Positions 9,423 to 24,774 of a stretch of DNA of 64,000 bases are shown piece after piece. The position numbers and the translations under genes were made by a program. The number at the start of each line of letters is the position of its first letter. Position 1 is the stretch's first letter. The notes beneath the pieces are model-generated. The model saw only the letters and a list, made by a program, of their open reading frames with translations. It had not been told where the DNA came from and did not search any database. Origin of the DNA: a virus (lineage: Duplodnaviria; Heunggongvirae; Uroviricota; Caudoviricetes); the IMG/VR virus record IMGVR_UViG_3300031772_000005, one strand, 5' to 3'.

Positions 9423-9600
9423 AATAGTAAAAGGACCTAGTAAATACCACGTAATGTATAAAAAGCATTGGTGGAGTAGATGGAAATATTGCAGAAGACC
9501 TAAAGGGCAAGCACCTAATGATAACTTTGCTTATGTATGGCAATGGGATACTGAAAGAGGTGCTCAAGCTTATATTAATGAATGTTTGAGAGAAGATTGA
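9412..9600 (+). CDS. hypothetical small basic protein
   Basis: 62 aa, W/K/R-rich. Confidence 0.35.
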   Translation: MNYKIVKGPSKYHVMYKKHWWSRWKYCRRPKGQAPNDNFAYVWQWDTERGAQAYINECLRED

Positions 9601-9668
9601 TAGTTATATTAAAAATGGATTATAACGGTAGGCGTATAAGAGAAGTTAAAGAACTAATTTAAAAGATT

Positions 9669-9875
9669 ATGAGAATTAAAAAACAACAAAAGATAGAATC
9701 TTTGAAAACCTCGTTTAAAAATTTATCAAACGCAGACTTACTACACGAAGTCATAAGTAGAAGCGGTGGAGATGATTATGATGGATATTTTACAAAAGAT
9801 GGTCAAATGGAGTATGATATTCTTCATGAAATGCTGATAGAAAGATTAGGAGATTGGTACACACAAACCCCTTAA
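9669..9875 (+). CDS. hypothetical protein
   Basis: 68 aa. Confidence 0.4.
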   Translation: MRIKKQQKIESLKTSFKNLSNADLLHEVISRSGGDDYDGYFTKDGQMEYDILHEMLIERLGDWYTQTP

Positions 9876-9895
9876 TTTCTCTTATACGCTGTTAG

Positions 9896-9965
9896 TGTTT
9901 CGTTTTAATGAACACTAACACAAAGCTAACCTACCGTTTTAATGTCTGTTAGGTAACGTTATAAC
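9896..9965 (+). promoter_or_regulatory. two adjacent hairpins with identical CGTTTTAATG loops
   Basis: GTTAGTGTTT-CGTTTTAATG-AACACTAAC and ACCTACC-GTTTTAATG-TCTGTTAGGT; the 10-nt loop sequence occurs twice, 32 nt apart. Confidence 0.4.
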
Positions 9966-9978
9966 ATAAATAGATAAT

Positions 9979-10062
9979 ATGAGTAGAGAAATAATAATAG
10001 GTGTAATAGCCATTGGATTGATAATGATTACAGTAATAATAGATAAATATACTAGGTTATGA
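9979..10062 (+). CDS. 27-aa hydrophobic mini-ORF (MSREIIIGVIAIGLIMITVIIDKYTRL)
   Basis: Single TM-like peptide; its stop overlaps the next ATG (ATGA). Confidence 0.3.
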   Translation: MSREIIIGVIAIGLIMITVIIDKYTRL

Positions 10063-10313
10063 AAAAATCAGATGAGAAAAAACTACAGTCAGCCATTGAG
10101 GATATACTATGGATGGCTGCAAGATATGCACATGGAAGACATACTTATGCACCGTCTGTTGTACGTGATTCAGTAGCTGTATTTAAAGATGTATTTCCAG
10201 ACTTTAAAATAAAGCAAGACCATGTAATTGAATTACCTGCTGATGATGAAATAGGAGGTTGCTCTTTTAGGAGTGATTATTTAGATGATATTTTTAATAA
10301 TAAAACACTATGA
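10059..10313 (+). CDS. hypothetical protein
   Basis: 84 aa. Confidence 0.45.
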   Translation: MKKSDEKKLQSAIEDILWMAARYAHGRHTYAPSVVRDSVAVFKDVFPDFKIKQDHVIELPADDEIGGCSFRSDYLDDIFNNKTL

Positions 10314-10489
10314 CAGCAATAGATTTACTAGTAGAAAGACTAGCAGAGAATGGAATCTTACATAGCTCAGATGTTGCAGAAGCTAATGAGTTATTTAAGC
10401 AACAGATAATTGATGCTTTTGATGAGGGATGCTCTGAGCATACAATTTTTGGAGTTGATTATTATAAATTAACCTTTAAATCAGAATAA
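10310..10489 (+). CDS. small protein, paralog A (59 aa, not in ORF track)
   Basis: Starts MTA and ends YYKLTFKSE; same termini as the next ORF; ATGA overlap upstream. Confidence 0.45.
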   Translation: MTAIDLLVERLAENGILHSSDVAEANELFKQQIIDAFDEGCSEHTIFGVDYYKLTFKSE

Positions 10490-10490
10490 G

Positions 10491-10730
10491 ATGACAGCAG
10501 TAACAGAAATATTAGAACATTGTAAGAAATTAATTTCAGAAGGTCATCAAATAGATACACAAGGGCTTGTACATTGGATTGAAGACACTCTTTTAGAAAT
10601 GGAGAAGCAACAACTAGAGGATTGCTTTATGAAAACACATCAAACAGGTAGATTTGAATGTTTATTTGTTGCAGAAGAAAATTGGATTACTTTTGAATCA
10701 TGGTACAAAGAAACCTTTAAATCAGAATAA
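10491..10730 (+). CDS. small protein, paralog B
   Basis: Starts MTA and ends WYKETFKSE; a 19-nt DNA repeat aacctttaaatcagaataa ends both paralogs. Confidence 0.5.
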   Translation: MTAVTEILEHCKKLISEGHQIDTQGLVHWIEDTLLEMEKQQLEDCFMKTHQTGRFECLFVAEENWITFESWYKETFKSE

Positions 10731-10731
10731 T

Positions 10732-11247
10732 ATGAAACTAATTAAAACAGAAGATGAACAAGGAGTCATGTATTCCTTATCAGGAGATAATCTACCTGAG
10801 AATTATGTATTATCCAAACAAAACTGTGATGAACTATTTGGAGCAGTTGATGTTGAGAAGTTGGCGGAGTTTTCTGAAAACTCTGCAACAAGTAATGGAC
10901 TAAACACTTTTCAATATCCATACTTCAAAAAAGGATTCAATGAAGGCTTCAACAAAGCAATGGAGTTGAATAAAGACAAGGTGTTTGCTTTGGATGATAT
11001 GATTATGCAAGTTAAGGCAGCATTTTATAATGGTGTTATTGTCGGTAAAGGCAATGATCCTATTTTTAGCATTGATGATTTTGTACAATCTATTAGACCT
11101 ATTCAAGAACCAACAGAAATAGAAGTTGAGATTGTGATGGAATGTTTAGATCCTACTTGTGATGGTGTAAATAGAAAAGGTTGTTGTATACCTGGAGATA
11201 AGCCTAAACTTGACTCATCAGGAAATTTAATACTTAAAAAGATTTGA
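10732..11247 (+). CDS. hypothetical protein
   Basis: ATG at 10732 follows the paralog B stop directly; the longer 10654 start would overlap paralog B heavily. Confidence 0.5.
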   Translation: MKLIKTEDEQGVMYSLSGDNLPENYVLSKQNCDELFGAVDVEKLAEFSENSATSNGLNTFQYPYFKKGFNEGFNKAMELNKDKVFALDDMIMQVKAAFYNGVIVGKGNDPIFSIDDFVQSIRPIQEPTEIEVEIVMECLDPTCDGVNRKGCCIPGDKPKLDSSGNLILKKI

Positions 11248-11248
11248 T

Positions 11249-11569
11249 ATGGACTTTGGATTAGGATTATTTATAGGCATGTTTATCATGTGGGTTATAG
11301 CAATGAAATTAAAAGCTGAATGGAAAAGAGACCTTGAAAAGCTCAAGGATTATGAAACACTTGAAGAAGCTAAAAAGTATGCTGAATTATCTTATTATGG
11401 GGATGAAGTGGATGCTTTTATAGCAGGTGCTAATTACCAAGCTGAAAGAATGTATAGTGAGGAAAATATGATTTTATATTCTGACTACGTTCTTATGTGT
11501 TCAGCAGAAAAAACTTTAAAGCTACCATTACAGCCAAAAGAATGGTATGAACAATTTAAAAAGAAATAA
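11249..11569 (+). CDS. N-terminally membrane-anchored small protein
   Basis: FGLGLFIGMFIMWVIAMKL TM segment. Confidence 0.45.
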   Translation: MDFGLGLFIGMFIMWVIAMKLKAEWKRDLEKLKDYETLEEAKKYAELSYYGDEVDAFIAGANYQAERMYSEENMILYSDYVLMCSAEKTLKLPLQPKEWYEQFKKK

Positions 11570-11620
11570 GATGAATAAAAATTATGAAAGAGCTTTGTAT
11601 TTTTTTGCAGGAATAGGAGC

Positions 11621-11857
11621 TTGGAATTTAATAATGTATATACTAAACCTATAAATATGAAAGGAGAAATCAGAAAAAACGGAGAATTAAAAATAATATT
11701 ATCTCATGAAGATGATATGGATAAAGCTGCATTAGAAGCTTTAATAAAAACTGGAGATATTAAAGGAACATTGATTATATCACAAGAACAAGCTGTTAAA
11801 TTTGATGTGCCAATTGGAAGTGTAATATTAACTAATAAACTAAATAATAATGACTAA
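11621..11857 (+). CDS. hypothetical protein
   Basis: 78 aa. Confidence 0.4.
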   Translation: MEFNNVYTKPINMKGEIRKNGELKIILSHEDDMDKAALEALIKTGDIKGTLIISQEQAVKFDVPIGSVILTNKLNNND

Positions 11858-12245
11858 AGAAAGAAACACATTAGGACAATTCTTAAAAGGTTTAATGCCT
11901 TGGAATAAAAACAAAAAAGGTATTCATTTATCTCCAGACACTGAATTTAAATCAGGTGAAGATCATACTGGAGAAAATCATCCATCATGGAATGGTGGAG
12001 AGCAAACTCCAAAAAATGATTGTACTCATGTATGGACAGGAACTAATGAAAGAGTTAGAAAGCCAAGAATGATATATCAAGAAGCTCACGGGCCAATCCC
12101 TGCAGGTCATGTAATTTATCATATAGATGGTAATAAAAGAAATGATGATCCAAGTAACTTAGAAGCTATTAGTAGAGGAGAGTTAATGCAACGAAATGCT
12201 AATGAAGCTAGAGAACTTAAAAAAGATGATGATGAAAATAATTAA
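11850..12245 (+). CDS. free-standing HNH homing endonuclease
   Basis: HVIYHIDGNKRNDDPSNLEAIS is an HNH signature (H-x-D-G-N...N-L). Confidence 0.7.
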   Translation: MTKERNTLGQFLKGLMPWNKNKKGIHLSPDTEFKSGEDHTGENHPSWNGGEQTPKNDCTHVWTGTNERVRKPRMIYQEAHGPIPAGHVIYHIDGNKRNDDPSNLEAISRGELMQRNANEARELKKDDDENN

Positions 12246-12612
12246 AAATTTAATACTTGCTATAGTATGTACAGTATCTAGTATAGCATGTAGTGCTCAA
12301 TTTTATATGCATGCATCTACAGCACAAATTGGTACATGGTCCGTATCAGCAGATGATTGGATATGGGAAGAACCCGCAAACTGCAATATTGCTATTAAAA
12401 TCAAAGGTAATTTAATTAAAGTTAAGGATAAAGCAGATTCTTACTATATTACTTATGATATAATATCAGAAGAAGATAATGAAGCCATATGGGAAGCATT
12501 AGATGAACAAGAAAAACCTTGTAATGTTGTAATAACCGTTGTAGATGAGATAGATTATCTTATTATAGTTTATCCGCAAATATGTTTTAGGTATCAAACT
12601 ATAAATGACTAA
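12226..12612 (+). CDS. secreted protein / putative lipoprotein
   Basis: Signal-peptide-like MMMKIIKNLILAIVCTVSSIACSAQ; start placed after the HNH stop. Confidence 0.4.
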   Translation: MMMKIIKNLILAIVCTVSSIACSAQFYMHASTAQIGTWSVSADDWIWEEPANCNIAIKIKGNLIKVKDKADSYYITYDIISEEDNEAIWEALDEQEKPCNVVITVVDEIDYLIIVYPQICFRYQTIND

Positions 12613-12614
12613 AC

Positions 12615-12866
12615 ATGACTGAAGAAGAATTAATTGAAGAAGGTTTTGAACGGATTGATGTTCCAATAGAAGAAAGTGGTGATGAAGAAGATTACTATTA
12701 CTATAGATATTCATTAGGTAGTGGCCTTAGTTTGTATAGTTCAGAGAATACTGATTCACCAAAAAATAAATGGAGAGTAACTTTTGATGAATTTACAGAT
12801 AATATTATAGATATTGAAGATGTGCAAATTTTATTAGCCTTATTTAAAAAATGGAAAATAACTTAA
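12615..12866 (+). CDS. small acidic protein
   Basis: 83 aa, D/E/Y-rich. Confidence 0.4.
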   Translation: MTEEELIEEGFERIDVPIEESGDEEDYYYYRYSLGSGLSLYSSENTDSPKNKWRVTFDEFTDNIIDIEDVQILLALFKKWKIT

Positions 12867-12875
12867 ACTTAAAAA

Positions 12876-13259
12876 ATGTATACCGCTAAACTTAAAAAAG
12901 TTAATGGTAAGCTTTCACAACCAGATAAGAATAAAATCTTATATGATGCGTTTGTGAAAGCTTTACCAGAAGGCTCAGAAGTAGAATTATTTATGAATGT
13001 GGTAACAGATGGAGGATCTTTAGCTCAAATATCTAAAGTTCACACATGTATAAGAATGTTAGCTCAAGAATCCGGATATTCTTTTGAAGAGATGAAACAA
13101 CTCATTAAAGAAAGATCCGGATTATGTCTAGTATTTACAGAAGGAGATACTCAACAAGAGATATGTAAATCTTTTGGAGAATGTACTAAAGATGAATTAT
13201 CTATGAGTATACAAGCTTGTATTGAAATTGGAGAAATGTATAATATTAATCTAGGGTAG
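12876..13259 (+). CDS. hypothetical protein
   Basis: 127 aa. Confidence 0.45.
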   Translation: MYTAKLKKVNGKLSQPDKNKILYDAFVKALPEGSEVELFMNVVTDGGSLAQISKVHTCIRMLAQESGYSFEEMKQLIKERSGLCLVFTEGDTQQEICKSFGECTKDELSMSIQACIEIGEMYNINLG

Positions 13260-13560
13260 GAGCTACAAAGCCTTCATCCCCAGGTTCTAATATTTCTTTC
13301 TCTTCATATGCATCTTGTTCTTTTGCTACTTTTTCAATTTCAGCAAGTAATAAAGTAATAGTATAAAATGATCTTTCTAATTCATTCATATTTTCATACT
13401 TACCTGTCATGATTGTTTTAAGAGATTCTTCTCTTTTTACATCATCAGTTTCTTGTTGAAATAAGTAATATAATGTTTTTTTAAGCATAATATAATATGC
13501 TTTATTAACTTTGACATCCAATAAAATGTCTTCTTTTAATTCTTTAACTTTTACTGCCAT
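13246..13560 (-). CDS. hypothetical protein (lone minus-strand gene in the + module)
   Basis: 104-aa ORF filling a 250-nt gap with no + strand ORF; divergent from the UDG gene. Confidence 0.4.
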   Translation of the reverse strand: MAVKVKELKEDILLDVKVNKAYYIMLKKTLYYLFQQETDDVKREESLKTIMTGKYENMNELERSFYTITLLLAEIEKVAKEQDAYEEKEILEPGDEGFVAPTLD

Positions 13561-13579
13561 ACCACAAATATATAAAAAA

Positions 13580-14296
13580 ATGAAACAAGAATTAAATATT
13601 GAAGAAATAAAAGAAAAAATTTATGCTAAATTAGAACCCTCTGGGTGGGCTATTAAACTTAGAGGGTTTATATTTAGTAAAGAATTTGATGATATAATTA
13701 AAAAGTTAATTAAACAGACTCAAGACGGTAAAAGATTTACACCAACACTTAAAAATTGGTTTAGAGCTTTTGAAGAATGTCCTATTACGGAACTTAAAGT
13801 TGTTATAGTAGCAGCTGATCCATATCCGGGATTACATCAAGCGGATGGAATTCCGTTTAGTTTAAGCACATCATCAGAAAAACCTCAAGTTTTATCTTAT
13901 TTACTTGATGCAATAGATAAAACTGTATATGATAATAATAATCAAGTTGGTAGAGATACAGATCTCAAAAGATGGAGTAATCAAGGAATACTCTTACTTA
14001 ACTCAGCTTTGACAACAACTATAGGTAAACCGGGTCAGCATTTTGCAATCTGGCAAACTTTTTTAGCTTACTTATTTGATTACTTAACATGGAATTGTCC
14101 AGGTTTAGTATACATTTATATGGGTAAGACTGCTCAGCAATGGGCAGATGCTGTAAATGATAACAATTACAAATTTATGATTACTCATCCTGCACTCATG
14201 TTATTTAATAATGACACTGAATGGGATTGCGGAGATGTATTTAAGAAAACTACAGACTTAATACAAAAAAATTATAATTATCTTATACAGTGGTAA
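13580..14296 (+). CDS. uracil-DNA glycosylase-like protein (family 1-like)
   Basis: [24 protein letters not shown] aligns with UNG [34 protein letters not shown] aligns with QGVLLLNTVLTV; HPAL aligns with HPSPL. Start chosen at the ATG after the minus-strand gene. Confidence 0.65.
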   Translation: [238 protein letters not shown]

Positions 14297-14297
14297 A

Positions 14298-14888
14298 ATG
14301 AATGAAATTTTTAACAAATTACTAAAAGCAGGTATGACACCTAATGCTTTTTATTATCTGCATAGCTTACATCATAATATAGTACCTAACAAATTTATTA
14401 ATGCATCAATTGAATGTGCTAAACTACAAAATGATGAATGGCTTACTGAAACTAAAGCTTTAACTCAAAAAGCTAAAGATCTTGTAAATCAAATAGATAA
14501 GTACTTTACAGTGAGTAAAGCTAAAACATCCGTTACAGTAATGGGTGAAAATTATATGGAAAATATTGAACAATATTTAAGTATTTTTCCTAACTTTAAA
14601 CTCCCAAGTGGTAAACCCGCTAGGTGCAGTCCCAAAAATATAGAAACAGGTTTTAGATGGTTTTTTAATAATCATAATTATACTTGGGCTACTATATTTG
14701 AGGCAACAGCAAGATATGTGAATGAATTTGAAATGAGTGGCTGGAAATATATGAGAACTTCTCAATATTTTATTAGAAAACAGAGTTCTGTAGAAAGAAG
14801 TTTTGATTCTGAATTAGCTAATTATTGCAACATGATAGAAAATGGATTACAAGAAGATGATTTTAAATTTAGAGAAAATATTGTATGA
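14298..14888 (+). CDS. hypothetical protein
   Basis: 196 aa. Confidence 0.5.
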   Translation: MNEIFNKLLKAGMTPNAFYYLHSLHHNIVPNKFINASIECAKLQNDEWLTETKALTQKAKDLVNQIDKYFTVSKAKTSVTVMGENYMENIEQYLSIFPNFKLPSGKPARCSPKNIETGFRWFFNNHNYTWATIFEATARYVNEFEMSGWKYMRTSQYFIRKQSSVERSFDSELANYCNMIENGLQEDDFKFRENIV

Positions 14889-15058
14889 TTAAATTTAAAT
14901 TACTCATAATAGCTTTAGTCGGTAGTGTCTTAAGCTATTATATTATCAATCTCTTTTTATTTCCTATTAATATTTTACAATACATTGGTATTGAAGTTGT
15001 TATTTCAATATTTCATGCTATGTTTAATAAAATTAAAGTAGAAATAAATACTAATTAA
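14885..15058 (+). CDS. 57-aa hydrophobic small ORF (not in ORF track)
   Basis: MIKFKLLIIALVGSVLSYYIINLFLFPINILQYIGIEVVISIFHAMFNKIKVEINTN; ATGA overlap with upstream stop. Confidence 0.3.
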   Translation: MIKFKLLIIALVGSVLSYYIINLFLFPINILQYIGIEVVISIFHAMFNKIKVEINTN

Positions 15059-15068
15059 ACAATACTTC

Positions 15069-16076
15069 ATGAGTGATGCAAAAAAAACTGTTCCTGTAGA
15101 GTGGAAGAGTCAAAAGGAGGGCTTTCAAGATTCACTACACTACCTAAAAGGTAGAAAAATTGGTGCAATTAGAAGTTTAGCTACTCCTTGGCCTAAATTT
15201 AATGATGCATTAACAGATGGAATTGAATGGAATACAATGATTGTAATTGGAGGTAGACCCGCAAGTGGTAAAACTTTAATTGCAGAACAAATCATAAGAG
15301 AAGCTTTTGTATTAAACCCGACTGAAAATTTTAGAGTATTACAATTTCAATTTGAAATGCTTGCAAGATCTTCAGCTATTAGGGAATACTCTAGTGCTAT
15401 AGGACGTTCCTATAAATACTTATGTAGTGCTGATGGCAAATTATCTGATGAAGACTTAAAAAGATGTTATGAATATGCTAAAGAGAAGGTTAAACACCCT
15501 ATTGATATAGTAGAAACACCATGCACAATTGATGATTTTAAAAGAATAATACATAATTATATGAATTTACATTCAGAAGTATCTGATGAACTTGTAAAAA
15601 CATATACAAAAACTTTAATAACTATAGATCATTCATTATTATTTAAAAAAGCTGCCTATGAGAGAGAGAAACATGATACATTAAACAATTTAGGGGAAGC
15701 CCTAACAGAACTTAAAAGGATTTATCCAATAACATTTATAGTATTAAGTCAATTGAATAGGAATATTGATCATCCTGATAGATCTGAAGACGGTAAATAC
15801 GGAAACTACGTGCTAGAATCTGATATTTTTGGTGCTGATGCACTTCTTCAACATGCAGACACTGTAATAGGTATCAATAGACCTGGTAAACAAAAGATAA
15901 GATTTTATGGGCCAGATAGATTTATAATAGAAGATGAAAGAGTGATGGTATTACATTTTTTAAAATGTAGGAATGGAGATACCCGTTTAAGCTTTTTCAA
16001 AGCTGAATTTGAGAGAATGAGAATTGTAGAGATGGCAACACCTCCGCAACAAGAAAAAAGAATAGGAACTAAATAA
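15069..16076 (+). CDS. DnaB-family replicative helicase (RecA-like C-terminal domain only)
   Basis: Walker A GGRPASGKT, Walker B-like LITIDHSLL, H3 motif LSQLNRN; lacks the DnaB N-terminal domain. Confidence 0.65.
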   Translation: MSDAKKTVPVEWKSQKEGFQDSLHYLKGRKIGAIRSLATPWPKFNDALTDGIEWNTMIVIGGRPASGKTLIAEQIIREAFVLNPTENFRVLQFQFEMLARSSAIREYSSAIGRSYKYLCSADGKLSDEDLKRCYEYAKEKVKHPIDIVETPCTIDDFKRIIHNYMNLHSEVSDELVKTYTKTLITIDHSLLFKKAAYEREKHDTLNNLGEALTELKRIYPITFIVLSQLNRNIDHPDRSEDGKYGNYVLESDIFGADALLQHADTVIGINRPGKQKIRFYGPDRFIIEDERVMVLHFLKCRNGDTRLSFFKAEFERMRIVEMATPPQQEKRIGTK

Positions 16077-16082
16077 TTTAAA

Positions 16083-16619
16083 ATGAGTTTATCAACTAAA
16101 GATCCTGTGAATAGAAAAGAAAAAACTGAACAACTATTCAAGGAACATGAACATAAATTTAAGATTTTAGATATTAATAACCCTTTGTTTATACCAAAAT
16201 GTGCTTATAAACCATATGGTAAAACAGAATATATGCTTGGATTTTTTCCAAGTGAATTAAAAAGAGGTGAAGATATCTATACTGAATTTGTAAGTATAGA
16301 ACTTGATTCTGAAGATACTACACGTACCTTATATAAATGGAGATACAATCCCCATTATGAAACAGAATATGAGACAACAGAACCCAATGCTAAAGGAGAT
16401 GTAAGATATCTCATCCCAGTAGCTGAATTGATTAAGATTGAAATTAAAGCAGATCCACTAAATGAAGAGTCTGATAAATTTCCTGATTTTACAGAATTGA
16501 TGAACACAGATGAGGATGCTCCTCTATCTATGTTAACAATTAGAGATCTTGCAGCTATTATGTTGCAAAAACCGGTGAGTCAAAAAGAATGGTTAAATAA
16601 AATTATTAATAAATCATGA
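16083..16619 (+). CDS. hypothetical acidic protein
   Basis: 178 aa. Confidence 0.5.
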   Translation: MSLSTKDPVNRKEKTEQLFKEHEHKFKILDINNPLFIPKCAYKPYGKTEYMLGFFPSELKRGEDIYTEFVSIELDSEDTTRTLYKWRYNPHYETEYETTEPNAKGDVRYLIPVAELIKIEIKADPLNEESDKFPDFTELMNTDEDAPLSMLTIRDLAAIMLQKPVSQKEWLNKIINKS

Positions 16620-16954
16620 GTTTGATACTACCAACAGGATTAATTGCTCCAACAGAAATTAATCCTAAAAACCTTATTATATTTTCAAAACCAAAGATTG
16701 GTAAAACAAGTTTACTAGCTACATTAGACAAATGTCTTCTATTAGATTTAGAAGGTGGTTCTAATTATGTTAGTGCAATGAAAGTCCAAGCTAACTCTTT
16801 TGAAGAAATTAAAGAAATAGGTAAAGCTATTAAAGAAGCAGGGTATCCCTATAAATATGTAGCAGTTGACACTATTACAGCTTTAGAAGAGATGATTGTA
16901 CCTTATGCTGAAATACTATACTCCAAAAGCCCTAAACGTCCTTGGGGCATATAG
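16616..16954 (+). CDS. AAA_24/Sak4-like RecA-fold ATPase, exon 1 (ORF runs into the intron to an in-frame stop)
   Basis: Walker A SKPKIGKTSL, LDLEGG, YVAVDTITALEE (Walker B-like); the true exon end is probably near 16933-16942. Confidence 0.5.
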   Translation: MSLILPTGLIAPTEINPKNLIIFSKPKIGKTSLLATLDKCLLLDLEGGSNYVSAMKVQANSFEEIKEIGKAIKEAGYPYKYVAVDTITALEEMIVPYAEILYSKSPKRPWGI

Positions 16955-17817
16955 CAGTGATGTTATATGAAAATCTCTTTAATTGCTGGGAACACTTAAT
17001 TCATATGGGTAAATTTTATTATATGGGAAATTTTTACTATATTGTATAATAAATAAGATACATATGAAAAGTCAATCAGCAGCCAAGCTTTATAAATATT
17101 CAGCATTAGATAATAAACTAATTGGAAAAACTTTTAATAATATAGAAGTTTTAAGTTTATCACATGTAGAAAAAAGTAGAAGATTTTATGATATAAAATG
17201 TTTAAGATGTAATAACTTATCATATATGAGAGGTGATAGATTTACAGGAACTCAAAAATTAAATACATGTAGAAAATGCAGACAAGAAAATGCAATTCTT
17301 ACAAGTAAAAAAAGAGCGACTCCTGAATCAGTTTATTCAAGTTTATATGCTCAATGTAGAAAAGGAGCATCAGCTAGAAATATTACATTTTTAATTTCTT
17401 TAGAAGAATTTAAAAAAATTATTACAAAAGATTGTTATTATTGTGGAGTAGAACCTAGATTATCTAGTACATCTAAAAGATATAACAAAACAACAACGCA
17501 AATAAAACATAATGGTGTAGATAGATTTGACAATACTATAGGATATGTTTTAAATAATTGTGTGCCTTGTTGTAAATTTTGTAATCATATGAAAAGAGAC
17601 TATACTAAAGATGATTTTTTAAATCATATTAAGAAAATTTTTGTTTATAATGAAGGTTCAACGACTATCCCGTAAGGGAGTACATCACAAGCTAATGGTG
17701 ATGGAAATAGGAGAGTTCTCACTAGAGAACGTGATATAGTCTAATCTGTATAGAAATATGCAGCAGTTCATAAGAGAACGTATTAAGTATTGCAAACTTA
17801 ATAGAATATAAATGATG
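16934..17817 (+). mobile_element. group I intron (IA2-like) carrying an HNH homing-endonuclease ORF; boundaries approximate
   Basis: P-like AATTGCTGGGAA (16981-16992); Q-like AATCAGCAGCC (17074-17084, inside the ORF start); R-like GTTCTCACTAGAGAAC (17715-17730); S-like GATATAGTC (17733-17741); terminal hairpin TATTAAG/CTTAATA; flanking ORFs are the two halves of one ATPase. Confidence 0.55.
17064..17675 (+). CDS. HNH homing endonuclease (intron-encoded)
   Basis: NGVDRFDNTIGYVLNNCVPCCKFCNHMKRDYT HNH core plus multiple CxxC zinc knuckles. Confidence 0.75.
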   Translation: MKSQSAAKLYKYSALDNKLIGKTFNNIEVLSLSHVEKSRRFYDIKCLRCNNLSYMRGDRFTGTQKLNTCRKCRQENAILTSKKRATPESVYSSLYAQCRKGASARNITFLISLEEFKKIITKDCYYCGVEPRLSSTSKRYNKTTTQIKHNGVDRFDNTIGYVLNNCVPCCKFCNHMKRDYTKDDFLNHIKKIFVYNEGSTTIP

Positions 17818-18258
17818 GGTAAAAATTGGTTTAAAGAAGAAGATGGTGGTAAATTAAAATACGGTACTATATTAGGTTTACCTGATGGTGCGGGTTATTA
17901 TTGGACAAGACAAGCTTTTACTAAAGTTCTTGACTATATATTAACTTGGGCTCCTCATGTAATCTTTTTAGGTCACGTAAAAGATACCTTATTAGAAAAA
18001 GCTGGTGCAAGTTTTACTGCAACAGATTTAGATTTAACTGGTAAACTTAAAAGAATTACTATATCTAATTCAGATGCTATAGGTTATCTATACCGTAAAG
18101 GTAAAGCTAATTATATAAGCTTCAAAAGTGATGGTGACATAGCATGTGGTGCTAGACCTGATCACTTAAAAAACCAAGAAATTATGATTTCTGAAATTAC
18201 CCCAGAAGGTGAATATAAAACATACTGGGACAAAATATTTTTAAATATAAACAAATAA
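17812..18258 (+). CDS. AAA_24/Sak4-like ATPase, exon 2
   Basis: PHVIFLGHVKD resembles the AAA_24 C-terminal strand (nvifiaHe); in-frame stop immediately upstream, so no independent long ORF; exon probably begins at 17815 or 17818. Confidence 0.5.
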   Translation: MMGKNWFKEEDGGKLKYGTILGLPDGAGYYWTRQAFTKVLDYILTWAPHVIFLGHVKDTLLEKAGASFTATDLDLTGKLKRITISNSDAIGYLYRKGKANYISFKSDGDIACGARPDHLKNQEIMISEITPEGEYKTYWDKIFLNINK

Positions 18259-18270
18259 AAAACAAATAAA

Positions 18271-18948
18271 ATGGCTTTAAGTACAACAGATTTACCGGAA
18301 GGTGGCGGAGGATTACCAAAAACAATTGCACCGGGTAATCATACAGTGAAAATTAATAGTGTATATCTTGATGATTTCAAATTTATTCCAGGAGCTAAAC
18401 ATTTAATGTTTAACATAGAAACTAAGCCTATTGAAGGTTTTGAAGGATTTTTAATTGATAAAGATGATGAAAGTAAAGGTCACTATGAAGGCCAAATTGG
18501 TAGATTAAAAGCTAGTCAGTATGCATTTGCTGACGGTAAAACTAAATCAGGTATAGAGATATTTAGAGATAAATCTATAATGATTTTCCTTAAGCATTTG
18601 TGTATGGCTTTAGGAATACATGATTGGTTCATTGCACAAAATGATAAATATGACATAATTGAAGACTTAGTTCAAGCATTCAATGATGAAGCACCGTTTA
18701 AAGATATCTATTTAGATATGTGTATAGCAGGTAAAGAATATGAAGGTAAGTCAGGATATACTAATCATGATTTATGGATTGCAAAAGGAAATAAGACAGG
18801 TTATGCTTATGCTCAAGAAGGAGATAAAGTTATGACTTATGTAGAATCAGAACATCTTAAGAAATTAGAGGTTAAGCCTGTACAAGCTTTTGATGCAGAT
18901 GACTTTACAGTTCCTGCAAAGGCTTCAACAGATTTTAGTTTAGACTAA
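18271..18948 (+). CDS. hypothetical protein
   Basis: 225 aa, Gly-rich N-terminus. Confidence 0.5.
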   Translation: MALSTTDLPEGGGGLPKTIAPGNHTVKINSVYLDDFKFIPGAKHLMFNIETKPIEGFEGFLIDKDDESKGHYEGQIGRLKASQYAFADGKTKSGIEIFRDKSIMIFLKHLCMALGIHDWFIAQNDKYDIIEDLVQAFNDEAPFKDIYLDMCIAGKEYEGKSGYTNHDLWIAKGNKTGYAYAQEGDKVMTYVESEHLKKLEVKPVQAFDADDFTVPAKASTDFSLD

Positions 18949-18956
18949 ATTTATTT

Positions 18957-18992
18957 AGAAGGGAGATCTGTAATGGTCTCCCTTTCTATTTT
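18957..18992 (+). terminator. rho-independent terminator
   Basis: AGAAGGGAGA-tctgtaatgg-TCTCCCTTTCT followed by attttaat. Confidence 0.55.
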
Positions 18993-19004
18993 AATATTCT
19001 TAAT

Positions 19005-19982
19005 ATGCTTTCTACAATTAACTTAACAGATATAACTACTGTACCTATTGAATGGATATTTGAATATTATTTAAATCTCAAGGAAAAACTTGATGGTCAA
19101 GACATAAAGTTGGCTTCTGTTTTTAAATCAGAGAAGACTCCATCTATGTTTATTTATTTAGATTTAGAATCTTTTGAGTATAAATTTAAGGACTTTTCTT
19201 CTGGTTATCAAGGAGATAGCATATCTTTGATAAAGTATATGTTTAACATAGAATATCATGAAGCTATACTTAAGATAGAAAATGATTATGAAGCATTCTT
19301 AAAATATAATACTTCTTATGTACCTAGTATAATGCAAGTACATGATAGGTTTAAAGTAGTTGATTTTCAAATAAGACACTGGAATAATCTTGATCAAGAT
19401 TATTGGTCTAAGTATGGTATCAGTTCAAAAACATTAAGTAAATATAATGTAGCACCTTTAGAATTCTTTAACATGAGTAAGGATAATTTAGATGGTACAA
19501 GTACTAAACTAATTACACAACGTAATTATTTGTATGGCTATTTTAGAAATGATGGTAGTCTCTATAAAATTTATCTTCCTAAAACACCTGATCAGAAATT
19601 TGTGAAAGTAGCTAATTATGTACAGGGAAGTGAACAATTAATTGGTAAAGATTATTTAATTATCTTATCTTCCTTAAAAGATTTAATGGCTTTTAATAGA
19701 TTATCCTTACCTAATATTGAAGCAATTGCTCCAGATAGTGAAAATAGTATGATTGCAGAAAGTGCTCTACAGAAACTTATTGATATACATCATTATAAAA
19801 AATTAATAGTGTTATTTGATAATGATGAATCCGGAATGAAAGCAATGATAAGATATAAAACTAGATATCATCTAGATTATATTGAGTTACCTCTTGAAAA
19901 GGATTTATCAGATTCAGTTAAAAAGTATGGAGCTGAAGAAATTAGAAAAATATTATTAAAACTAATTAAAGAAATATTATGA
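19005..19982 (+). CDS. Toprim-domain protein, putative DnaG-like primase
   Basis: DxD motif LIVLFDNDESG; IILSSLKDLMAF may be the first Toprim strand; no zinc-ribbon seen. Confidence 0.4.
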   Translation: MLSTINLTDITTVPIEWIFEYYLNLKEKLDGQDIKLASVFKSEKTPSMFIYLDLESFEYKFKDFSSGYQGDSISLIKYMFNIEYHEAILKIENDYEAFLKYNTSYVPSIMQVHDRFKVVDFQIRHWNNLDQDYWSKYGISSKTLSKYNVAPLEFFNMSKDNLDGTSTKLITQRNYLYGYFRNDGSLYKIYLPKTPDQKFVKVANYVQGSEQLIGKDYLIILSSLKDLMAFNRLSLPNIEAIAPDSENSMIAESALQKLIDIHHYKKLIVLFDNDESGMKAMIRYKTRYHLDYIELPLEKDLSDSVKKYGAEEIRKILLKLIKEIL

Positions 19983-20404
19983 GTTGGATATATAAAGGTA
20001 AAGAATTTAATGATATGTGTATTCCACAAGATCATGTAGGATTTATTTACATAATGACTGCTATTATTGATGGTAAGTCAGTTACATATATTGGTAAGAA
20101 AAACTTTTTTGCTAATATTAAAAAACCTATGGGTAAAAAAGCTCTAGCAATGAGTACAGATAAACGATTAAAAAAATACATAAGAGAATTAAAACCAGCC
20201 TTTATGAATTATTATAGTAGTAATGCTGTATTAAAACAAGCTCATAAAGATGGTGTATTGATTAAAAGAGAAATACTACACATTTGTAAAACACAAACAG
20301 AATTAACTTATCAAGAAGTAAAGCATCAATTTAAATATGAGGTGCTAGAGAAAGAAGAATTCCTAAATGGAAATATATTAGGAAGATTTTATAAAATTAA
20401 ATAA
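19979..20404 (+). CDS. hypothetical basic protein
   Basis: 141 aa; ATGA coupling. Confidence 0.45.
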   Translation: MSWIYKGKEFNDMCIPQDHVGFIYIMTAIIDGKSVTYIGKKNFFANIKKPMGKKALAMSTDKRLKKYIRELKPAFMNYYSSNAVLKQAHKDGVLIKREILHICKTQTELTYQEVKHQFKYEVLEKEEFLNGNILGRFYKIK

Positions 20405-20406
20405 TT

Positions 20407-20736
20407 ATGAGTAATAATATTTTACCTTATTCCATAAAACTAAGAGTTGACAGTGTTGTACATTCTAGACAAATTCAAGAAACGTTATTTGCATTAGGAT
20501 ATAAATGGCAAAATAGAGATAGTCTAACTATACAATTTATTAATTTACCTTTTTTATGTGCACATCCGACAGGTTATATAAAACACCTTGATGACGAAAA
20601 TTATTATAATGATTTAGATTATAGAGAAGTAAGTTTATATGATCTATCTAATTCATTTTATGGTATATCTAACACTATAAATTTTGATAAAATAAAAATT
20701 GATATTGCATACCTTACAAATATTATAAATACATGA
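20407..20736 (+). CDS. hypothetical protein
   Basis: 109 aa. Confidence 0.45.
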   Translation: MSNNILPYSIKLRVDSVVHSRQIQETLFALGYKWQNRDSLTIQFINLPFLCAHPTGYIKHLDDENYYNDLDYREVSLYDLSNSFYGISNTINFDKIKIDIAYLTNIINT

Positions 20737-21149
20737 AAAAAACAATAATTGAAATTGATGAGGCACGTAATTTATTAGACATGCTTAAATCAAAAGATGA
20801 AGAAAATCATACTATGGCTTTTTTAGCTATTGAAAATTGTAATATAAAGGATTCAATAATTCTTTTATATATAGTATATAAATTTTCTAATTTAGATCAG
20901 GCACTTTGGAAAAATAATTGCCCTAAATTAGTTAAAGAATTAATAAATAAAAATTTCATAGATGTATTACCAGATGATGCTTTTCAAGCACCTACTATGA
21001 ATGCTGTATTTAACAGAATTATCAGAGTTAAGGCTCCACAAGATATTATGGTATTCTTTTTAGAATTACATAATAATTATTTATTATCTATTATGAAAGC
21101 TTGGGGATATGATACATATAAATTTGAAGTAAATATAAAATTAAATTAA
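20733..21149 (+). CDS. hypothetical protein
   Basis: 138 aa; ATGA coupling. Confidence 0.45.
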   Translation: MKKTIIEIDEARNLLDMLKSKDEENHTMAFLAIENCNIKDSIILLYIVYKFSNLDQALWKNNCPKLVKELINKNFIDVLPDDAFQAPTMNAVFNRIIRVKAPQDIMVFFLELHNNYLLSIMKAWGYDTYKFEVNIKLN

Positions 21150-21377
21150 ATGAAGCATAAAGAAGAATCCTTAGCTAAAATAAGTAAAACCTTAATTTTA
21201 GCTGAACCCTTTTATGGTTTCTTATTGATAATGTTAAATAAAATATGGAGCAATAAACTTGTTCCAACTGCTGGTGTAAGTAAAAATGGTATAAATTACC
21301 AGTTAGCTATAAATCCTGAATTTTGGGAAAACCTATCTAATGAACATAGATATGGTGTACTTAAGCATGAGCTTAAT
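21150..21377 (+). CDS. putative metallopeptidase-VWA protein (DUF2201-like), exon 1
   Basis: Ends ...YGVLKHELN, then an in-frame TAG at the intron start; joins exon 2 to give HELNHIAFFH (HExxHxxxxH). Confidence 0.55.
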
Positions 21378-22485
21378 TAGGGCTCCTTATATAGTAATGT
21401 ATATGTAAAACGTCTTAAATTGCGGGAACTGCCTAAAGCTTTATCTACCAAGTATGCATAGTAATATAGTATATGGCCAGAGTAACTATCTGGGTATGGT
21501 AAAAATGATAAAGATGTCCGAATGGCAAATCCGCAGCCAAATTTCTTAGTTATATAATTTATTTTTGGTATATTGTAGTATAAATACTTACATATATGAA
21601 AACAGAAATAGAACAAAAAGTAATTGATTATTATATTACTGATAAATTATCAGGTAAAAAGATTGCAAGTTTATTACAAATAAATGTAAAAACTGTATTT
21701 GCAATTTTAAAAAGAAATAATGTAAAATCAAGAACTTTGTCTGAATCAGCAATGAAATACACTTGTCAAGATGACTTTTTTAATGTTATAAACACAGAGA
21801 AAAAAGCTTATTGGTTAGGAGTATTGTTTGCAGATGGGAATATTACAAAAAAAGCAAGTAACTCTGGACAAATTATTTTTTCATCAAAAGATAAAGAATG
21901 GGTAGACCTATTTTTATCAGATATTGGATCAAATAATTCTTCAAATTGTGAATATCAAAAAGTATTTAAAAAATATATATGGAAAGCTCAGATAACTTCT
22001 GCGCAAATGTATAATAATTTAAATAATTTAGGATGTACACCAGCTAAAACTAAAACAATTAAAATACCTATGTTAAATGATGAGTTAATTCATCATTTTA
22101 TTAGAGGTTACTTTGATGGTGATGGTACAGTTGGTGTTTATAAAAATCTAACAAGTAATGACTGGAAAATTTTAAAATCCGGTTTTTGTTCAGGTTCACA
22201 AGAATTTATTATAGACTTATTGAAAATATTACCAGTAAAAAATAAAACTATTAAACAAGTTAAGAATTGTTATATAACACAACATTCTTTACATGATAGT
22301 CTTAATTTATTTGAATATATGTATAAAAATTATACTAGATGTTTAGATAGAAAAAGACAAGTTTTCATTAATTACTTAGACACATATAAACCAAGAAAGA
22401 GGTTCAACGACTACAATAGACCATCCCAATAGGGATGAAGGTATAGTCTGATCTCATGTGAAAGCATGAGTTAACAAAATGCTTG
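21378..22485 (+). mobile_element. group I intron (IA2-like) carrying a LAGLIDADG homing-endonuclease ORF
   Basis: P element AAATTGCGGGAA (21417-21428); Q element AAATCCGCAGCC (21537-21548); S element GGTATAGTCTG (22440-22450); P9 hairpin CTCATG-tgaaag-CATGAG (22453-22470); terminal G at 22485; exon 1 ends in U; 5' boundary +/-3 nt. Confidence 0.6.
21596..22432 (+). CDS. LAGLIDADG homing endonuclease (double-motif, intron-encoded)
   Basis: Two LAGLIDADG motifs: YWLGVLFADGNI and IRGYFDGDGTV. Confidence 0.8.
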   Translation: MKTEIEQKVIDYYITDKLSGKKIASLLQINVKTVFAILKRNNVKSRTLSESAMKYTCQDDFFNVINTEKKAYWLGVLFADGNITKKASNSGQIIFSSKDKEWVDLFLSDIGSNNSSNCEYQKVFKKYIWKAQITSAQMYNNLNNLGCTPAKTKTIKIPMLNDELIHHFIRGYFDGDGTVGVYKNLTSNDWKILKSGFCSGSQEFIIDLLKILPVKNKTIKQVKNCYITQHSLHDSLNLFEYMYKNYTRCLDRKRQVFINYLDTYKPRKRFNDYNRPSQ

Positions 22486-23580
22486 CATATTGCTTTTTTT
22501 CATCTTACTCAACATCATAACTATTCTGATAGAAAGCTAGCTAACATTGCTATGGATATGGAAATAAACCAATACATAGATGATGAACACTTACCTACTA
22601 AAGAATTAAGTAAAGAAGAATATGATGCTATAGTAGATCCTATTAAAGAAGAGATTACAAAGGCAAAAGAAAAAGATGATGTAACACTTGAAGAAATCAG
22701 GGCTTTAGTAGATACTATACCTATGAGAGGTATATTTATTAAAGATTATCCAGATTTAAATCTAGATATGAAAGCAGGTAGTAGATATTATTATGATAAA
22801 CTACGAGAAGCTAAAGAAAAGAAAGAAAAAACAGGTGGTAGTGGAGATTTAAACTTTGATGCATTATGTGATGATATGGGTTCTGATGATCCTAACTTAT
22901 GGAATCATACTACATGGGAGGAGTTTGATAATTTATCTGAAGCTGAAAAGAAATTAATTGATAAGCAAGTAGATACTTTACTTAAGCATGCAGCTGATAT
23001 GACTCAAAAGAAAAGAGGTACTATACCTGGAGAATTAGAAGCTTACTTATTAAGTTTAGAACAAATTGAAAAAGCTAAATTTGATTGGAAAGGGTATATC
23101 AGAAGATTTACCGGTGTATCTACTAAAGTATACACTAAAAAGATAAGAAGAAAAGAAAATAAAAGATTTTCAGATAATCCGGGCTTAAAACTTAAAATGA
23201 AACAACATATGTTACTAGCAATAGATACATCAGGTTCTGTAAGTGATGAAGAATTAAAAGAATTTATGAATGAAATTCATCATATTTACAAAACTGGAGT
23301 AGATATTACTATAATTCAATGTGATGCAACTATACAAAGTATAAAAGAATATAAAGGTAAATTTGATGGCATCCATATAGGAGGCAGAGGAGGTACAGCA
23401 TTTGATCCAGTATTAGAATATTATAACGGACATTTAAAGAAATATACTAGTTTAGTATATTTTACAGATGGAGAATGTCATACTTATGTAAAACCTAAAT
23501 CACCTGTATTATGGGTGTTATCTGAAAGATCACATATGAATGAAGATCTTCCGGGAAAAACGATTAAACTTGAACTATAA
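22486..23580 (+). CDS. putative metallopeptidase-VWA protein, exon 2 (VWA domain)
   Basis: MIDAS motif LLAIDTSGSVSDEEL; no ATG start (the track ORF uses TTG at 22483); frame is continuous with exon 1 after intron removal. Confidence 0.55.
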   Translation, partial: HIAFFHLTQHHNYSDRKLANIAMDMEINQYIDDEHLPTKELSKEEYDAIVDPIKEEITKAKEKDDVTLEEIRALVDTIPMRGIFIKDYPDLNLDMKAGSRYYYDKLREAKEKKEKTGGSGDLNFDALCDDMGSDDPNLWNHTTWEEFDNLSEAEKKLIDKQVDTLLKHAADMTQKKRGTIPGELEAYLLSLEQIEKAKFDWKGYIRRFTGVSTKVYTKKIRRKENKRFSDNPGLKLKMKQHMLLAIDTSGSVSDEELKEFMNEIHHIYKTGVDITIIQCDATIQSIKEYKGKFDGIHIGGRGGTAFDPVLEYYNGHLKKYTSLVYFTDGECHTYVKPKSPVLWVLSERSHMNEDLPGKTIKLEL

Positions 23581-23592
23581 ATAAAAACAAAA

Positions 23593-24774
23593 ATGAGCCA
23601 GAGTAAATTAATACAATTAAACGTAGATGAATTAAAAGATTATTTAGAGCACATGGTTTCTAATAATCAATATATACAAGCACAAGGTAAAGTACCTGTA
23701 ACAATAAACATTGAAGGTGATTCAGGCCTTGGTAAAACATCAGCTATAAAACAATTTGCTGACAGCAAGAATATGGATGTCATTAGATTAAATTTAGCTG
23801 AGTTTGAAGAGTTAGGTGATTTAGTAGGTTTTCCATTAAAAGAATACTTAATTGAGAATAAAGAAGGTAAGTCAGCTTGGGTAGTTGATGCTCAACTTGA
23901 AACTGCTGTAAAATCCGGTTATAGAGTTAAAGATAAAAGAATGTCACATGCTGCTCCTGAATGGATTCAGGGTAAAACAGAAGGTGGTTTCTTAATTCTT
24001 GATGATTATACTAGAGCTGATCACAGATTTATGCAAGCAACAATGACTTTAGTTGAAGAACAGTCTTATGCATCATGGAAGTTACCTAAAAACTGGCATA
24101 TTATTCTTACTACTAATCCAGATAATGGAGATTATAACGTAACTTCATTAGACAATGCACAAAGAACAAGATTTGTAAGTGTAGAACTTAAGTTTGATGT
24201 AAATGTATGGGCAAGATGGGCTGAAGCAAATAACATTGATGGAAGATGTATTAATTTTCTATTGATGCATCCTGAATTAGTTACAGAAACTATAAATCCT
24301 AGAAGTATAACATTATTCTTTAACTCAATTAGTTCATTACCTAAGTTTGAAGACTCTTTACCATTAATACAAATGATTGGTGAAGGATCCGTTGGACCTG
24401 AATTTTCAAGTTTATTTACTATGTTTATTAATAATAAGCTTGACAAAATTATTGCTCCTCAAGATGTGATTACTAATCCAAATGAAGCATATGTGTTAGG
24501 TGCATTATCATCAGCTATTGGTAAAGATGATGACTATAGAGCAGATATTGCAAGTGTAATTGCTACAAGACTTGTAAATTATTCTTTAATTCATGCTTCA
24601 AAAGAACCCGTAAGCGCACCTATGATTCAAAGATTAGTAAAACTTACAACAGATTGTGAGGCTTTTACTAATGATTTGAAATACTATATGGTTAAAGAAA
24701 TTGTTAATGGCAATAAAGTAAAATTTGGTGGAATGATGAGAGACACTACAGTTGTAAAGATGACTCTACAATAA
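23593..24774 (+). CDS. AAA_5-type (MoxR-like) ATPase
   Basis: Walker A GDSGLGKTS; GFLILDDYTRADHRFMQATMTLVEE...WHIILTTNPDNGDY matches the AAA_5 Walker B/sensor region. Confidence 0.65.
   Translation: MSQSKLIQLNVDELKDYLEHMVSNNQYIQAQGKVPVTINIEGDSGLGKTSAIKQFADSKNMDVIRLNLAEFEELGDLVGFPLKEYLIENKEGKSAWVVDAQLETAVKSGYRVKDKRMSHAAPEWIQGKTEGGFLILDDYTRADHRFMQATMTLVEEQSYASWKLPKNWHIILTTNPDNGDYNVTSLDNAQRTRFVSVELKFDVNVWARWAEANNIDGRCINFLLMHPELVTETINPRSITLFFNSISSLPKFEDSLPLIQMIGEGSVGPEFSSLFTMFINNKLDKIIAPQDVITNPNEAYVLGALSSAIGKDDDYRADIASVIATRLVNYSLIHASKEPVSAPMIQRLVKLTTDCEAFTNDLKYYMVKEIVNGNKVKFGGMMRDTTVVKMTLQ

Follow-up and report, generated by a model that had tools for sequence, protein, structure and literature searches.

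A predicted group I intron with an endonuclease gene in the Sak4-like ATPase gene of a crAss-like phage, and its natural intron-less alleles

Group I introns have been reported in core genes (MCP, PolB, primase, as well as ATP_43b) of the Delta group of crAss-like phages, where ATP_43b is described as an "AAA domain ATPase" (Yutin et al. 2021, PMC7886860). In the part of that text that deals with them, these introns are recognized from their endonuclease domains, and RNA structure and boundaries are absent from it (PMC7886860). Here we describe an element of this kind in a 64,000-nucleotide (nt) stretch of DNA from the Caudoviricetes record IMGVR_UViG_3300031772_000005. This whole stretch is referred to below as the window; all coordinates are window positions, and features lie on the plus strand unless otherwise stated. 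The window is from a crAss-like (Suoliviridae/Delta-like) phage. Positions 16934 to 17814 (881 nt) interrupt the gene for an AAA_24/Sak4-like ATPase, and we conclude, with a probability of roughly 0.93, that they constitute a group I intron with these boundaries. We establish that the open reading frames (ORFs) on either side are halves of one gene, define the exact limits of the insert, show that it holds an RNA core with comparative support, and document a presence/absence polymorphism in nature.

An earlier note, made from the sequence alone, had proposed that the ORFs at 16616-16954 and 17812-18258 together form one AAA_24 ATPase gene of about 260 codons, interrupted by about 880 nt. The first ORF (112 amino acids, aa) matches Pfam AAA_24 at profile positions 2-85 (E = 1.1e-15) and the second (148 aa) at positions 92-173 (E = 3e-4); therefore, the two are consecutive parts of one domain, with the break between positions 85 and 92. 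Both ORFs also match PHROG 124 ("Sak4-like ssDNA annealing protein"). When the exons are joined, residues 17-203 of the product match PF13479 in a single stretch (profile positions 2-173 of 195; 76.4 bits against a cut-off of 27; E = 3.4e-21), and the protein aligns end to end with intact homologues of about 245 aa from crAss-like phages. The proposal of a single gene is borne out by these matches, with its sizes corrected to 253 aa and 881 nt.

Exon 1 (16616-16933, codons 1-106) was delimited by the AAA_24 match, by the homologue alignment, and by an intron-less contig (L051) that is colinear with the window up to 16933/16934. It encodes a Walker A motif (SKPKIGKT, with GKT at residues 29-31 of the spliced product) and a Walker B-like motif (VAVDTITALEE), and its C-terminal end reads ...LYSKSP. 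Exon 2 (17815-18258, codons 107-253 plus the stop codon) was placed by its match to AAA_24 positions 92-173, by the same alignment, and by the point at which the intron-less allele resumes, 17815; it begins MGKNWF... and includes the VIFLGHVKD strand. The name given to the product is that of its family annotation, according to which it would be a Sak4-like recombination or replication ATPase. ORF callers report three separate genes at this locus (112, 203, and 148 aa), where we read the true product as one 253-aa ATPase.

The insertion lies between codon 106 (Pro) and codon 107 (Met). In an alignment of five intact homologues, the corresponding region reads ...LY(R/K)Q(T/S)P-MGK..., with the P and G columns invariant; it follows that exon 1 ends in CCT, the T being position 16933, and that exon 2 starts with ATGGGT at 17815, directly after G17814. 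Hence, the coding part of exon 1 stops at 16933 and not at 16954, the last seven codons and the stop codon of the 112-aa ORF being intron sequence, and exon 2 begins at 17815 and not at 17812. The alignment of intron-less alleles jumps from 16934 to 17815, and a shared A leaves a 1-nt ambiguity. The placement 16934-17814 was chosen because it alone has exon 1 ending in U and the insert ending in G; with the alternative, the last base of the insert would be an A. U16933 pairs with G16944 in P1, and the last base of the intron, G17814, is the omega G. The predicted ligated junction joins ...AAAAGCCCU to AUGGGUAAA... (written at other lengths, ...CUCCAAAAGCCCU to AUGGGUAAAAAUUGG...).

Three candidate positions for the end of exon 1 (16933, 16939, and 16942) had been suggested, and both the intron-less alleles and the homologues single out U16933. 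Splicing after U16939 or U16942/16943 would add the residues KR or KRP, which none of the homologues has and which the intron-less allele also lacks. A start of exon 2 at 17812 was likewise rejected: the preceding base would be an A, and the extra Met that it adds is found neither in the homologues nor in P0001, the protein encoded by the intron-less allele. The in-frame stop codon predicted to lie immediately before exon 2 is present as TAA at 17809-17811.

The intron-less allele gives these boundaries a natural counterpart. P0001 (253 aa) is identical to the predicted spliced protein apart from one Gly-to-Ser difference at codon 213, and its gene is uninterrupted on three contigs (L051-L053: ENA k141_128855, JGI 3300032046, and Logan SRR9617926) with the same gene order as the window. 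Identity to the flanks of the window is 98.2-99.8% on both sides, and exactly 881 nt are missing. The intron-containing allele, represented by an identical 203-aa protein encoded within the insert, occurs on at least 24 contigs; in the six of these that were read (L058-L063), the intron is identical at 881 of 881 positions and the site is unchanged. The two alleles derive from sample sets that overlap (JGI 33000317xx-33000320xx and ENA ERZ272476xx-ERZ272479xx). Near-identical genomes are therefore polymorphic at one precise site, with 3 contigs lacking the intron and at least 24 carrying it.

The helices of the insert were assigned by direct reading of the sequence and checked by script; in addition, an unconstrained minimum-free-energy (MFE) fold was computed after a GAAA loop had been substituted for the ORF. 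All four of the group I elements that had been proposed were located: P (AATTGCTGGGAA) at 16981-16992, Q (AATCAGCAGCC) at 17074-17084, which is 10 nt inside the ORF starting at 17064, R (GTTCAACGACTAT) at 17656-17668, and S (GATATAGTC) at 17733-17741. The S element on its own is not significant, at least one match being found in 47 of 100 shuffles. P1 pairs exon bases GCCCU (16929-16933) with the internal guide GGGGC (16944-16948), placing the U16933.G16944 wobble at the 5' splice site, and the MFE fold lengthens this helix by A16934-U16943 and A16935-U16942. P2 (16949-16956/16961-16968) has 8 bp and a GUGA tetraloop; it appears in the MFE fold and shows compensatory changes at all eight pairs among relatives. 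P3 (16975-16980/17710-17715) pairs CUCUUU with GGAGAG in six standard pairs, two of them G.U. In P4 (16984-16989/17076-17081), the P element pairs with the Q element; the helix is 100% paired among relatives, with a G-C pair changing to A-U or U-A at alignment columns 62/165.

P5 (16994-16997/17069-17072), in which all four pairs covary, and P5a (17000-17007/17061-17068), with an AU-rich apical region, are both present in the MFE fold. Also in the P5a apical region is an 18-nt tandem duplication (17003-17038; ATATGGGTAAATTTTATT and ATATGGGAAATTTTTACT, 83% identical), which lies shortly upstream of the endonuclease ATG. P6 (17082-17084/17655-17657) is 100% paired among relatives and, together with P6a (17090-17096/17644-17650), for which the support is the window's own fold, closes the loop that holds the ORF. 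P7 (17663-17668/17736-17741) is formed by the R and S elements and is invariant. It is followed by P7.1 (17669-17671/17676-17678), which has a GUAA loop and two pairs with double changes, and by P7.2 (17683-17688/17698-17703) and P8 (17716-17720/17725-17729), each with four such pairs. P9 (17746-17752/17757-17763) has a GAAA loop, covaries, and overlaps a partial Rfam match (17733-17761); P9.1 (17766-17769/17776-17779) never varies among relatives, and P9.2 (17781-17788/17796-17803) covaries. The omega G (17814) completes the core. A partial P10 may also form, in which 16939-16943 pair with the five initial bases of exon 2; four of the five positions match when read by eye.

The MFE fold recovers every helix except P3, which is missing because P3 and P7 form a pseudoknot and cannot be drawn together. 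The ORF-deleted intron folds with a z-score of -4.3 relative to dinucleotide shuffles, none of 100 of which fold as well. The extra helices P7.1 and P7.2, between P7 and the 3' strand of P3, are what we take to be the defining trait of subgroup IA2, that of the T4-type phage introns, and the intron is placed with that subgroup because it has both.

Comparative support was assessed on 18 ORF-deleted cores, those of the window and 17 distinct relatives (IMG/VR contigs, cr50_1, cr53_1, and cr118_1), which provide 71 pairs. Two controls were used: pairing partners were slid by 1-3 columns, and the columns were shuffled 500 times. In the proposed structure, 90.9% of cells hold a standard pair, against 33-51% in the slid versions; 37 of the 71 pairs are changed on both sides, against 7-13; and the covariation score reaches 0.353, where the slid versions do not exceed 0.11. 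None of the 500 column shuffles reached the observed value for paired cells, for double-change pairs, or for the covariation score, whereas the count of further pair types was unexceptional, being reached by 95 of the 500. Most double changes fall in P2, P5, P7.2, P8, P9.2, and P1. P7 and P9.1 never vary and are hence neutral as comparative evidence.

P1 is instructive, since four of its five pairs show double changes and its splice-site column is U.G in 14 of the 18 sequences. Three sequences have C-G there, probably through misalignment of a region that depends on the exon. When relatives at other insertion sites were read individually, each P1 was found to pair with its own exon (GCUCU/GGAGC, GCUGU/GCAGC, GCAGAU/GUCUGC, GGAU/GUCC, and CCU/GGG), with a U.G pair at the predicted junction.

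Homology leads to the same class of element. A group I scan against Rfam had been suggested as a check, and its outcome was mixed for the window itself and clear for a close homologue. An E-value scan of 16800-17950 gave a match to RF00028 that is confined to model positions 223-251 (17733-17761, 29 nt covering the 3' strand of P7 and P9; 20.3 bits, E = 0.014; gathering score, 50 bits). We attribute its partial extent to the ORF of about 560 nt in P6, which breaks the alignment. Other low-score matches in this region (miRNA, snoRNA, and CRISPR-DR) were discarded as chance. In two related contigs, L043 and L045, this ATPase gene holds an ORF-less version of the intron, located between ...VQNP and RFLILFGKPKSGKT; the L045 intron aligns with that of the window in both halves and matches RF00028 over the full length of the model (86.2 bits, E = 2.9e-21).

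The 165-nt 3' domain, which spans the R-S region, matches 440 phage records by BLAST. These include the intron in nrdB of T4 and T4-like phages (79-83% identity over 17731-17811) and, in phages of Pseudomonas and Pectobacterium, places annotated as thymidylate synthase and homing endonuclease (td); a Staphylococcus phage is matched at a place labeled "Intron_gpI", and Klebsiella phage Pylas at its annotated "ATPase split by intron". A 24-nt block within this domain (GCAGCAGTTCATAAGAGAACGTAT, 17760-17783, from the 3' strand of P9 to P9.1) is found without a mismatch in 41 IMG/VR contigs and in phage Pylas; one of the 41, L010, is the window's own phage. This block is conserved far more strongly than the remainder of the intron, to a degree for which pairing alone does not account.

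We propose that the ATPase gene would be transcribed through the intron and that the RNA would fold into the P1-P9.2 core. An external guanosine would then attack after U16933, held in P1 by the guide GGGGC, and the freed 3'-OH of exon 1 would attack after G17814, ligating the exons. The ligated message would encode the intact 253-aa ATPase; unspliced RNA would yield a 112-aa fragment ending at the TAG at 16952.

The ORF within the intron (17064-17675, 203 aa) had been described as an HNH ORF, and this description stands in part. The ORF matches PHROG 1035 (endonuclease VII, 1.6e-17) and PHROG 3118 (HNH, 1.3e-12), and among solved structures it has a weak match (E = 3.8e-4) to the HNH restriction enzyme PacI (3ldy). 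The aligned block is C-YCG ... GVDR-D--GY---N---C--CN--K. In the C-terminal domain of the intron ORF, the motif reads CYYC ... GVDRFDNTIGY ... CCKFCNHMK, with CYYC and CCKFC flanking GVDRFDNTIGYVLNN...CNHMK, which aligns to the same block of PacI. Residues 46-72 (CLRC...CRKC) resemble a zinc ribbon, with a weak match to Rpb9 (E = 0.3). What did not hold is the canonical HNH assignment: from these alignments, the product is predicted to be a PacI-like, zinc-binding nuclease of the HNH/His-Me superfamily and not a canonical Pfam HNH protein. PacI, a beta-beta-alpha-metal nuclease, binds two zinc ions in each subunit and has a tyrosine where the histidine base would usually be (PMC3384342); a PacI-type loss of the histidine would explain why canonical HNH profiles miss the intron ORF. 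The enzyme is presumably a homing endonuclease with a long site. As in relatives, P6 carries the body of the ORF as a looped-out insertion. The 5' part of the reading frame overlaps the 3' strands of P5a, P5, and P4 as well as P6, and the 3' part overlaps P7 and, in P7.1, the 5' strand and the loop.

Several observations weigh against our interpretation of the insert as a group I intron of the kind set out here. Actual self-splicing is something that we infer from sequence features; the scan of the whole window with Rfam at the gathering threshold gave no match; and comparative support for P3 is weak, with 54.6% of cells paired and two G.U pairs among its six, which we attribute, by eye, to a one-base register shift in relatives. 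Pfam and NCBIfam gave no match to the intron ORF, the NCBIfam output being sub-threshold noise, as it was for the ATPase. The only ATG of this ORF (17064-17066) lies in the 3' strand of P5a, whereas relatives have theirs after Q; the start codon would thus be buried when the core folds, which would limit translation from folded RNA. With the ATG inside P5a and no Pfam match, expression and activity of the endonuclease are uncertain. Lastly, all intron copies read are identical and therefore carry no within-lineage sign of purifying selection on the intron.

Some of these points would fit an intron in decay, in which the core or the endonuclease is dead and splicing is impaired, so that the element is an immobile relic or the ATPase gene a pseudogene. 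The weak P3, the displaced start codon, and the canonical HNH histidine that is not evident all accord with such a state, as do relatives with an eroded or missing ORF: the ORF region is shortened in cr118_1 and L008, and L043 and L045 have none. We nevertheless regard decay as improbable. The ORF has its full length of 203 aa, with both Cys pairs and the GVDR-D-GY-N-CN-K motif as in active PacI; the core helices are all intact, with P7 invariant; the ATPase gene is present in every related crAss-like genome examined; and the intron allele has been assembled more often than the intron-less one (at least 24 contigs against 3), so that it is in a viable population.

A still less probable alternative is that the gene has been permanently split by insertion of a free-standing endonuclease gene, with the halves translated separately (exon 2 from the ATG at 17812 or 17815) to give a two-piece ATPase without splicing. 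The nrdA gene of phage Aeh1, split by mobE, is a case that resembles this arrangement. Both pieces in the window are ORFs with an ATG at or beside the junction, they are separated by ORF callers, and public records of crAss-like phages annotate equivalent pieces as separate coding sequences. Such a split would leave unexplained why the insert holds a complete, conserved, and covarying group I core, why its limits conform to the U/G rule with exact restoration of the frame, and why P1 is formed with exon sequence. Furthermore, the same gene in L045 harbors an ORF-less homologue that Rfam recognizes as a full group I intron, with no endonuclease gene to account for a split. A group II intron, an intein, or a programmed translational bypass can each split a phage gene, and nothing specific favors any of them here; we consider these alternatives as good as excluded by the sequence, in that the Rfam matches are the partial RF00028 match and chance-level matches, the exon 1 frame is closed by the TAG at 16952 with the insert out of frame (against an intein), the HNH and endonuclease VII family matches point to a nuclease ORF and not to a reverse transcriptase (against a group II intron), and 881 nt is far too long for bypass.

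If the insert is a mobile group I intron, as we favor, the endonuclease would presumably cut intron-less alleles near the point between CCCCT and ATGGGT during coinfection, and repair off the intron-containing genome would copy the intron in by homing. This target, and homing and endonuclease activity generally, are predicted from the sequences compared here. In intron-less DNA, the region around the insertion site reads ...CTCCAAATCCCCTATGGGTAAAAATTGG..., with the insertion point between ...AAATCCCCT and ATGGGTAAA...; the natural target sequences are AAATCCCCTATGGGT in the intron-less allele and AAAAGCCCTATGGGT in L054, a related intron-less species. The sole exon difference near the site is the codon for Ser105 (16928-16930), 4-6 nt upstream of the junction, of which G16929 forms the fifth P1 pair. 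The window and the six intron-containing contigs that were read all have AGC here, the three intron-less contigs all have TCC, and the intron-less related species (L054/L055, 76% protein identity) again has AGC. A change from TCC to AGC requires two substitutions via a non-Ser intermediate; therefore, co-conversion from a donor allele, which could be foreign, or selection of a resistant target would seem a better explanation than drift. If TCC is a selected, cleavage-resistant target, the locus would represent a natural arms race between intron and target in an environmental crAss-like phage.

Insertion sites in related contigs were surveyed by tblastn with the spliced protein and by reading of the junctions. 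Five positions in the ATPase gene were found to be occupied: between NP and RF, just before Walker A (L012, L030, L043, L045, L013, and L022); within the codon for the Tyr of ...LY, which is 14 nt upstream of the site used in the window (L014, L015, L018, L021, L027, L038, and L046); between P106 and M107, in the window and L010 only; after GHTKD (cr50_1); and near residue 210 (L040 and L042). In cr53_1 and cr118_1, it is the DNA polymerase gene that an intron of this lineage splits, and at each site the guide sequence is fitted to the local exon. Two or three copies of the 3' domain were also seen within a few kilobases in L017 (4924-5085 and 6034-6112) and L020 (three places), which are several introns of the lineage in neighboring genes. 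We suggest, as a conjecture that we would doubt sooner than accept, that one lineage marked by the 24-nt P9-P9.1 block has colonized at least five sites in the ATPase gene as well as the DNA polymerase gene across crAss-like phages and that Ser105 marks an ongoing contest in the window's phage.

The locus lies in a replication block, for which gene order was read on the plus strand over 15069-19982: a DnaB-like helicase (15069-16076; Pfam DnaB_C, 4.7e-20), a 178-aa ORF, the 112-aa ORF (16616-16954) with the 5' part of the ATPase gene, the intron-borne 203-aa ORF (17064-17675), the 148-aa ORF (17812-18258) with the 3' part, a 225-aa ORF, and a primase (19005-19982). In the Suoliviridae genome cr7_1, the order is DNA polymerase, hypothetical, helicase, hypothetical, ATPase, hypothetical, and primase, and the window agrees with it from the helicase onward. 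Searched by tblastn against annotated phages, the joined exons matched crAss-like phages alone (36-42% identity), each time as a single piece covering 97-98% of the query, in intact genes annotated as RecA, Sak4-like, or nucleotide-binding protein, and the shared neighbors were a DnaB helicase and a hypothetical gene on one side and a hypothetical gene and a primase on the other. Giant ORFs of up to 3734 aa occupy the minus strand, as expected for the crAss-like group. A megablast search with 24 kb of the window found no close DNA relative among annotated phages, the intron alone being matched. A tRNA scan found no tRNA genes in the window, which thus shows no sign of suppressor-tRNA recoding.

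Other features in the neighborhood were recorded. A second endonuclease gene (11850-12245, plus strand, 131 aa) matches PHROG 1891 (HNH endonuclease, 4.5e-24), and its equivalent in L051 matches Pfam HNH_3; it appears to be free-standing, no intron core having been detected around it. A 141-aa ORF (19979-20404, plus strand), whose start overlaps the primase stop codon and whose equivalents on related contigs match Pfam SegE_GIY-YIG, is likely a free-standing homing endonuclease gene. Farther on are a 278-aa ORF (21596-22432, plus strand), with an L051 equivalent that faintly matches LAGLIDADG_3, and an ORF (22483-23580) with an L051 equivalent that matches Pfam DUF2201. About 1.2 kb at 9422-10654 contain no ORF of at least 90 aa on either strand. 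An Rfam E-value scan covering 9000-24000 gave no match in this gap and revealed no further introns elsewhere in that range. Motif searches with GATATAGTC or AACGACTATCC revealed no second intron of the same type elsewhere in the window. Upstream of the replication block, window positions 11226-11537 and L051 positions 107-921 are colinear in short pieces only, which suggests a small insertion-deletion or replacement between the two genomes.

The practical consequences of this analysis concern annotation and experiment. Public records of crAss-like phages split related genes into separate ORFs, just as ORF callers do in the window. In addition, the occurrence of intron-plus and intron-minus alleles in the same metagenomes provides a ready substrate, together with its control, for tests of splicing and homing in phages that are hard to culture. 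The locus adds a precisely bounded and structurally modeled case to the intron load of crAss-like replication genes. It changes no concept, since group I introns that bear endonucleases and interrupt conserved motifs of phage DNA metabolism genes are textbook knowledge.

Among known systems, the introns in T4 nrdB and td (subgroup IA2) share with that of the window a core with P7.1 and P7.2 and an ORF looped out of a peripheral helix. They differ in lying in other host genes, and the ORF in the window overlaps the core strands P5a', P4', P7, and P7.1. The endonucleases of the T4 introns belong to the GIY-YIG family (I-TevI/II), whereas that of the window is predicted to be a PacI-like HNH enzyme. 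The gp35 gene of Klebsiella phage Pylas (NC_049444) is, like the gene in the window, a P-loop ATPase gene with an HNH-bearing group I intron; its P7'-P9-P9.1 region (52 nt) is 94% identical to that of the window, while the 5' half of the intron is more divergent, and Pylas is a member of the Schitoviridae with a Klebsiella host. R.PacI (PDB 3LDY), the best match among solved structures, differs in being homodimeric and in recognizing an 8-bp site, and the intron ORF adds an N-terminal region resembling a zinc ribbon.

The closest precedents are the introns that Yutin et al. (2021, PMC7886860) describe: they occur in the same group of phages, the window having a Suoliviridae gene order, and in the same gene, ATP_43b corresponding to AAA_24, and they too are endonuclease-bearing group I introns. 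In the public genome cr50_1, a related intron interrupts the same gene. The window's phage was recovered from different metagenomes, and its ATPase is only about 40% identical to those of the gut genomes. Its intron occupies a site of its own (Pro106/Met107), distinct from those found in related contigs (NP/RF, the Tyr codon lying 14 nt farther upstream, the position following GHTKD, and one near residue 210). There is thus precedent for the kind of element, for the phage group, and for the gene; the advance is modest and consists of a distinct insertion site, exact boundaries, an RNA model supported by covariation, and natural alleles with and without the intron.

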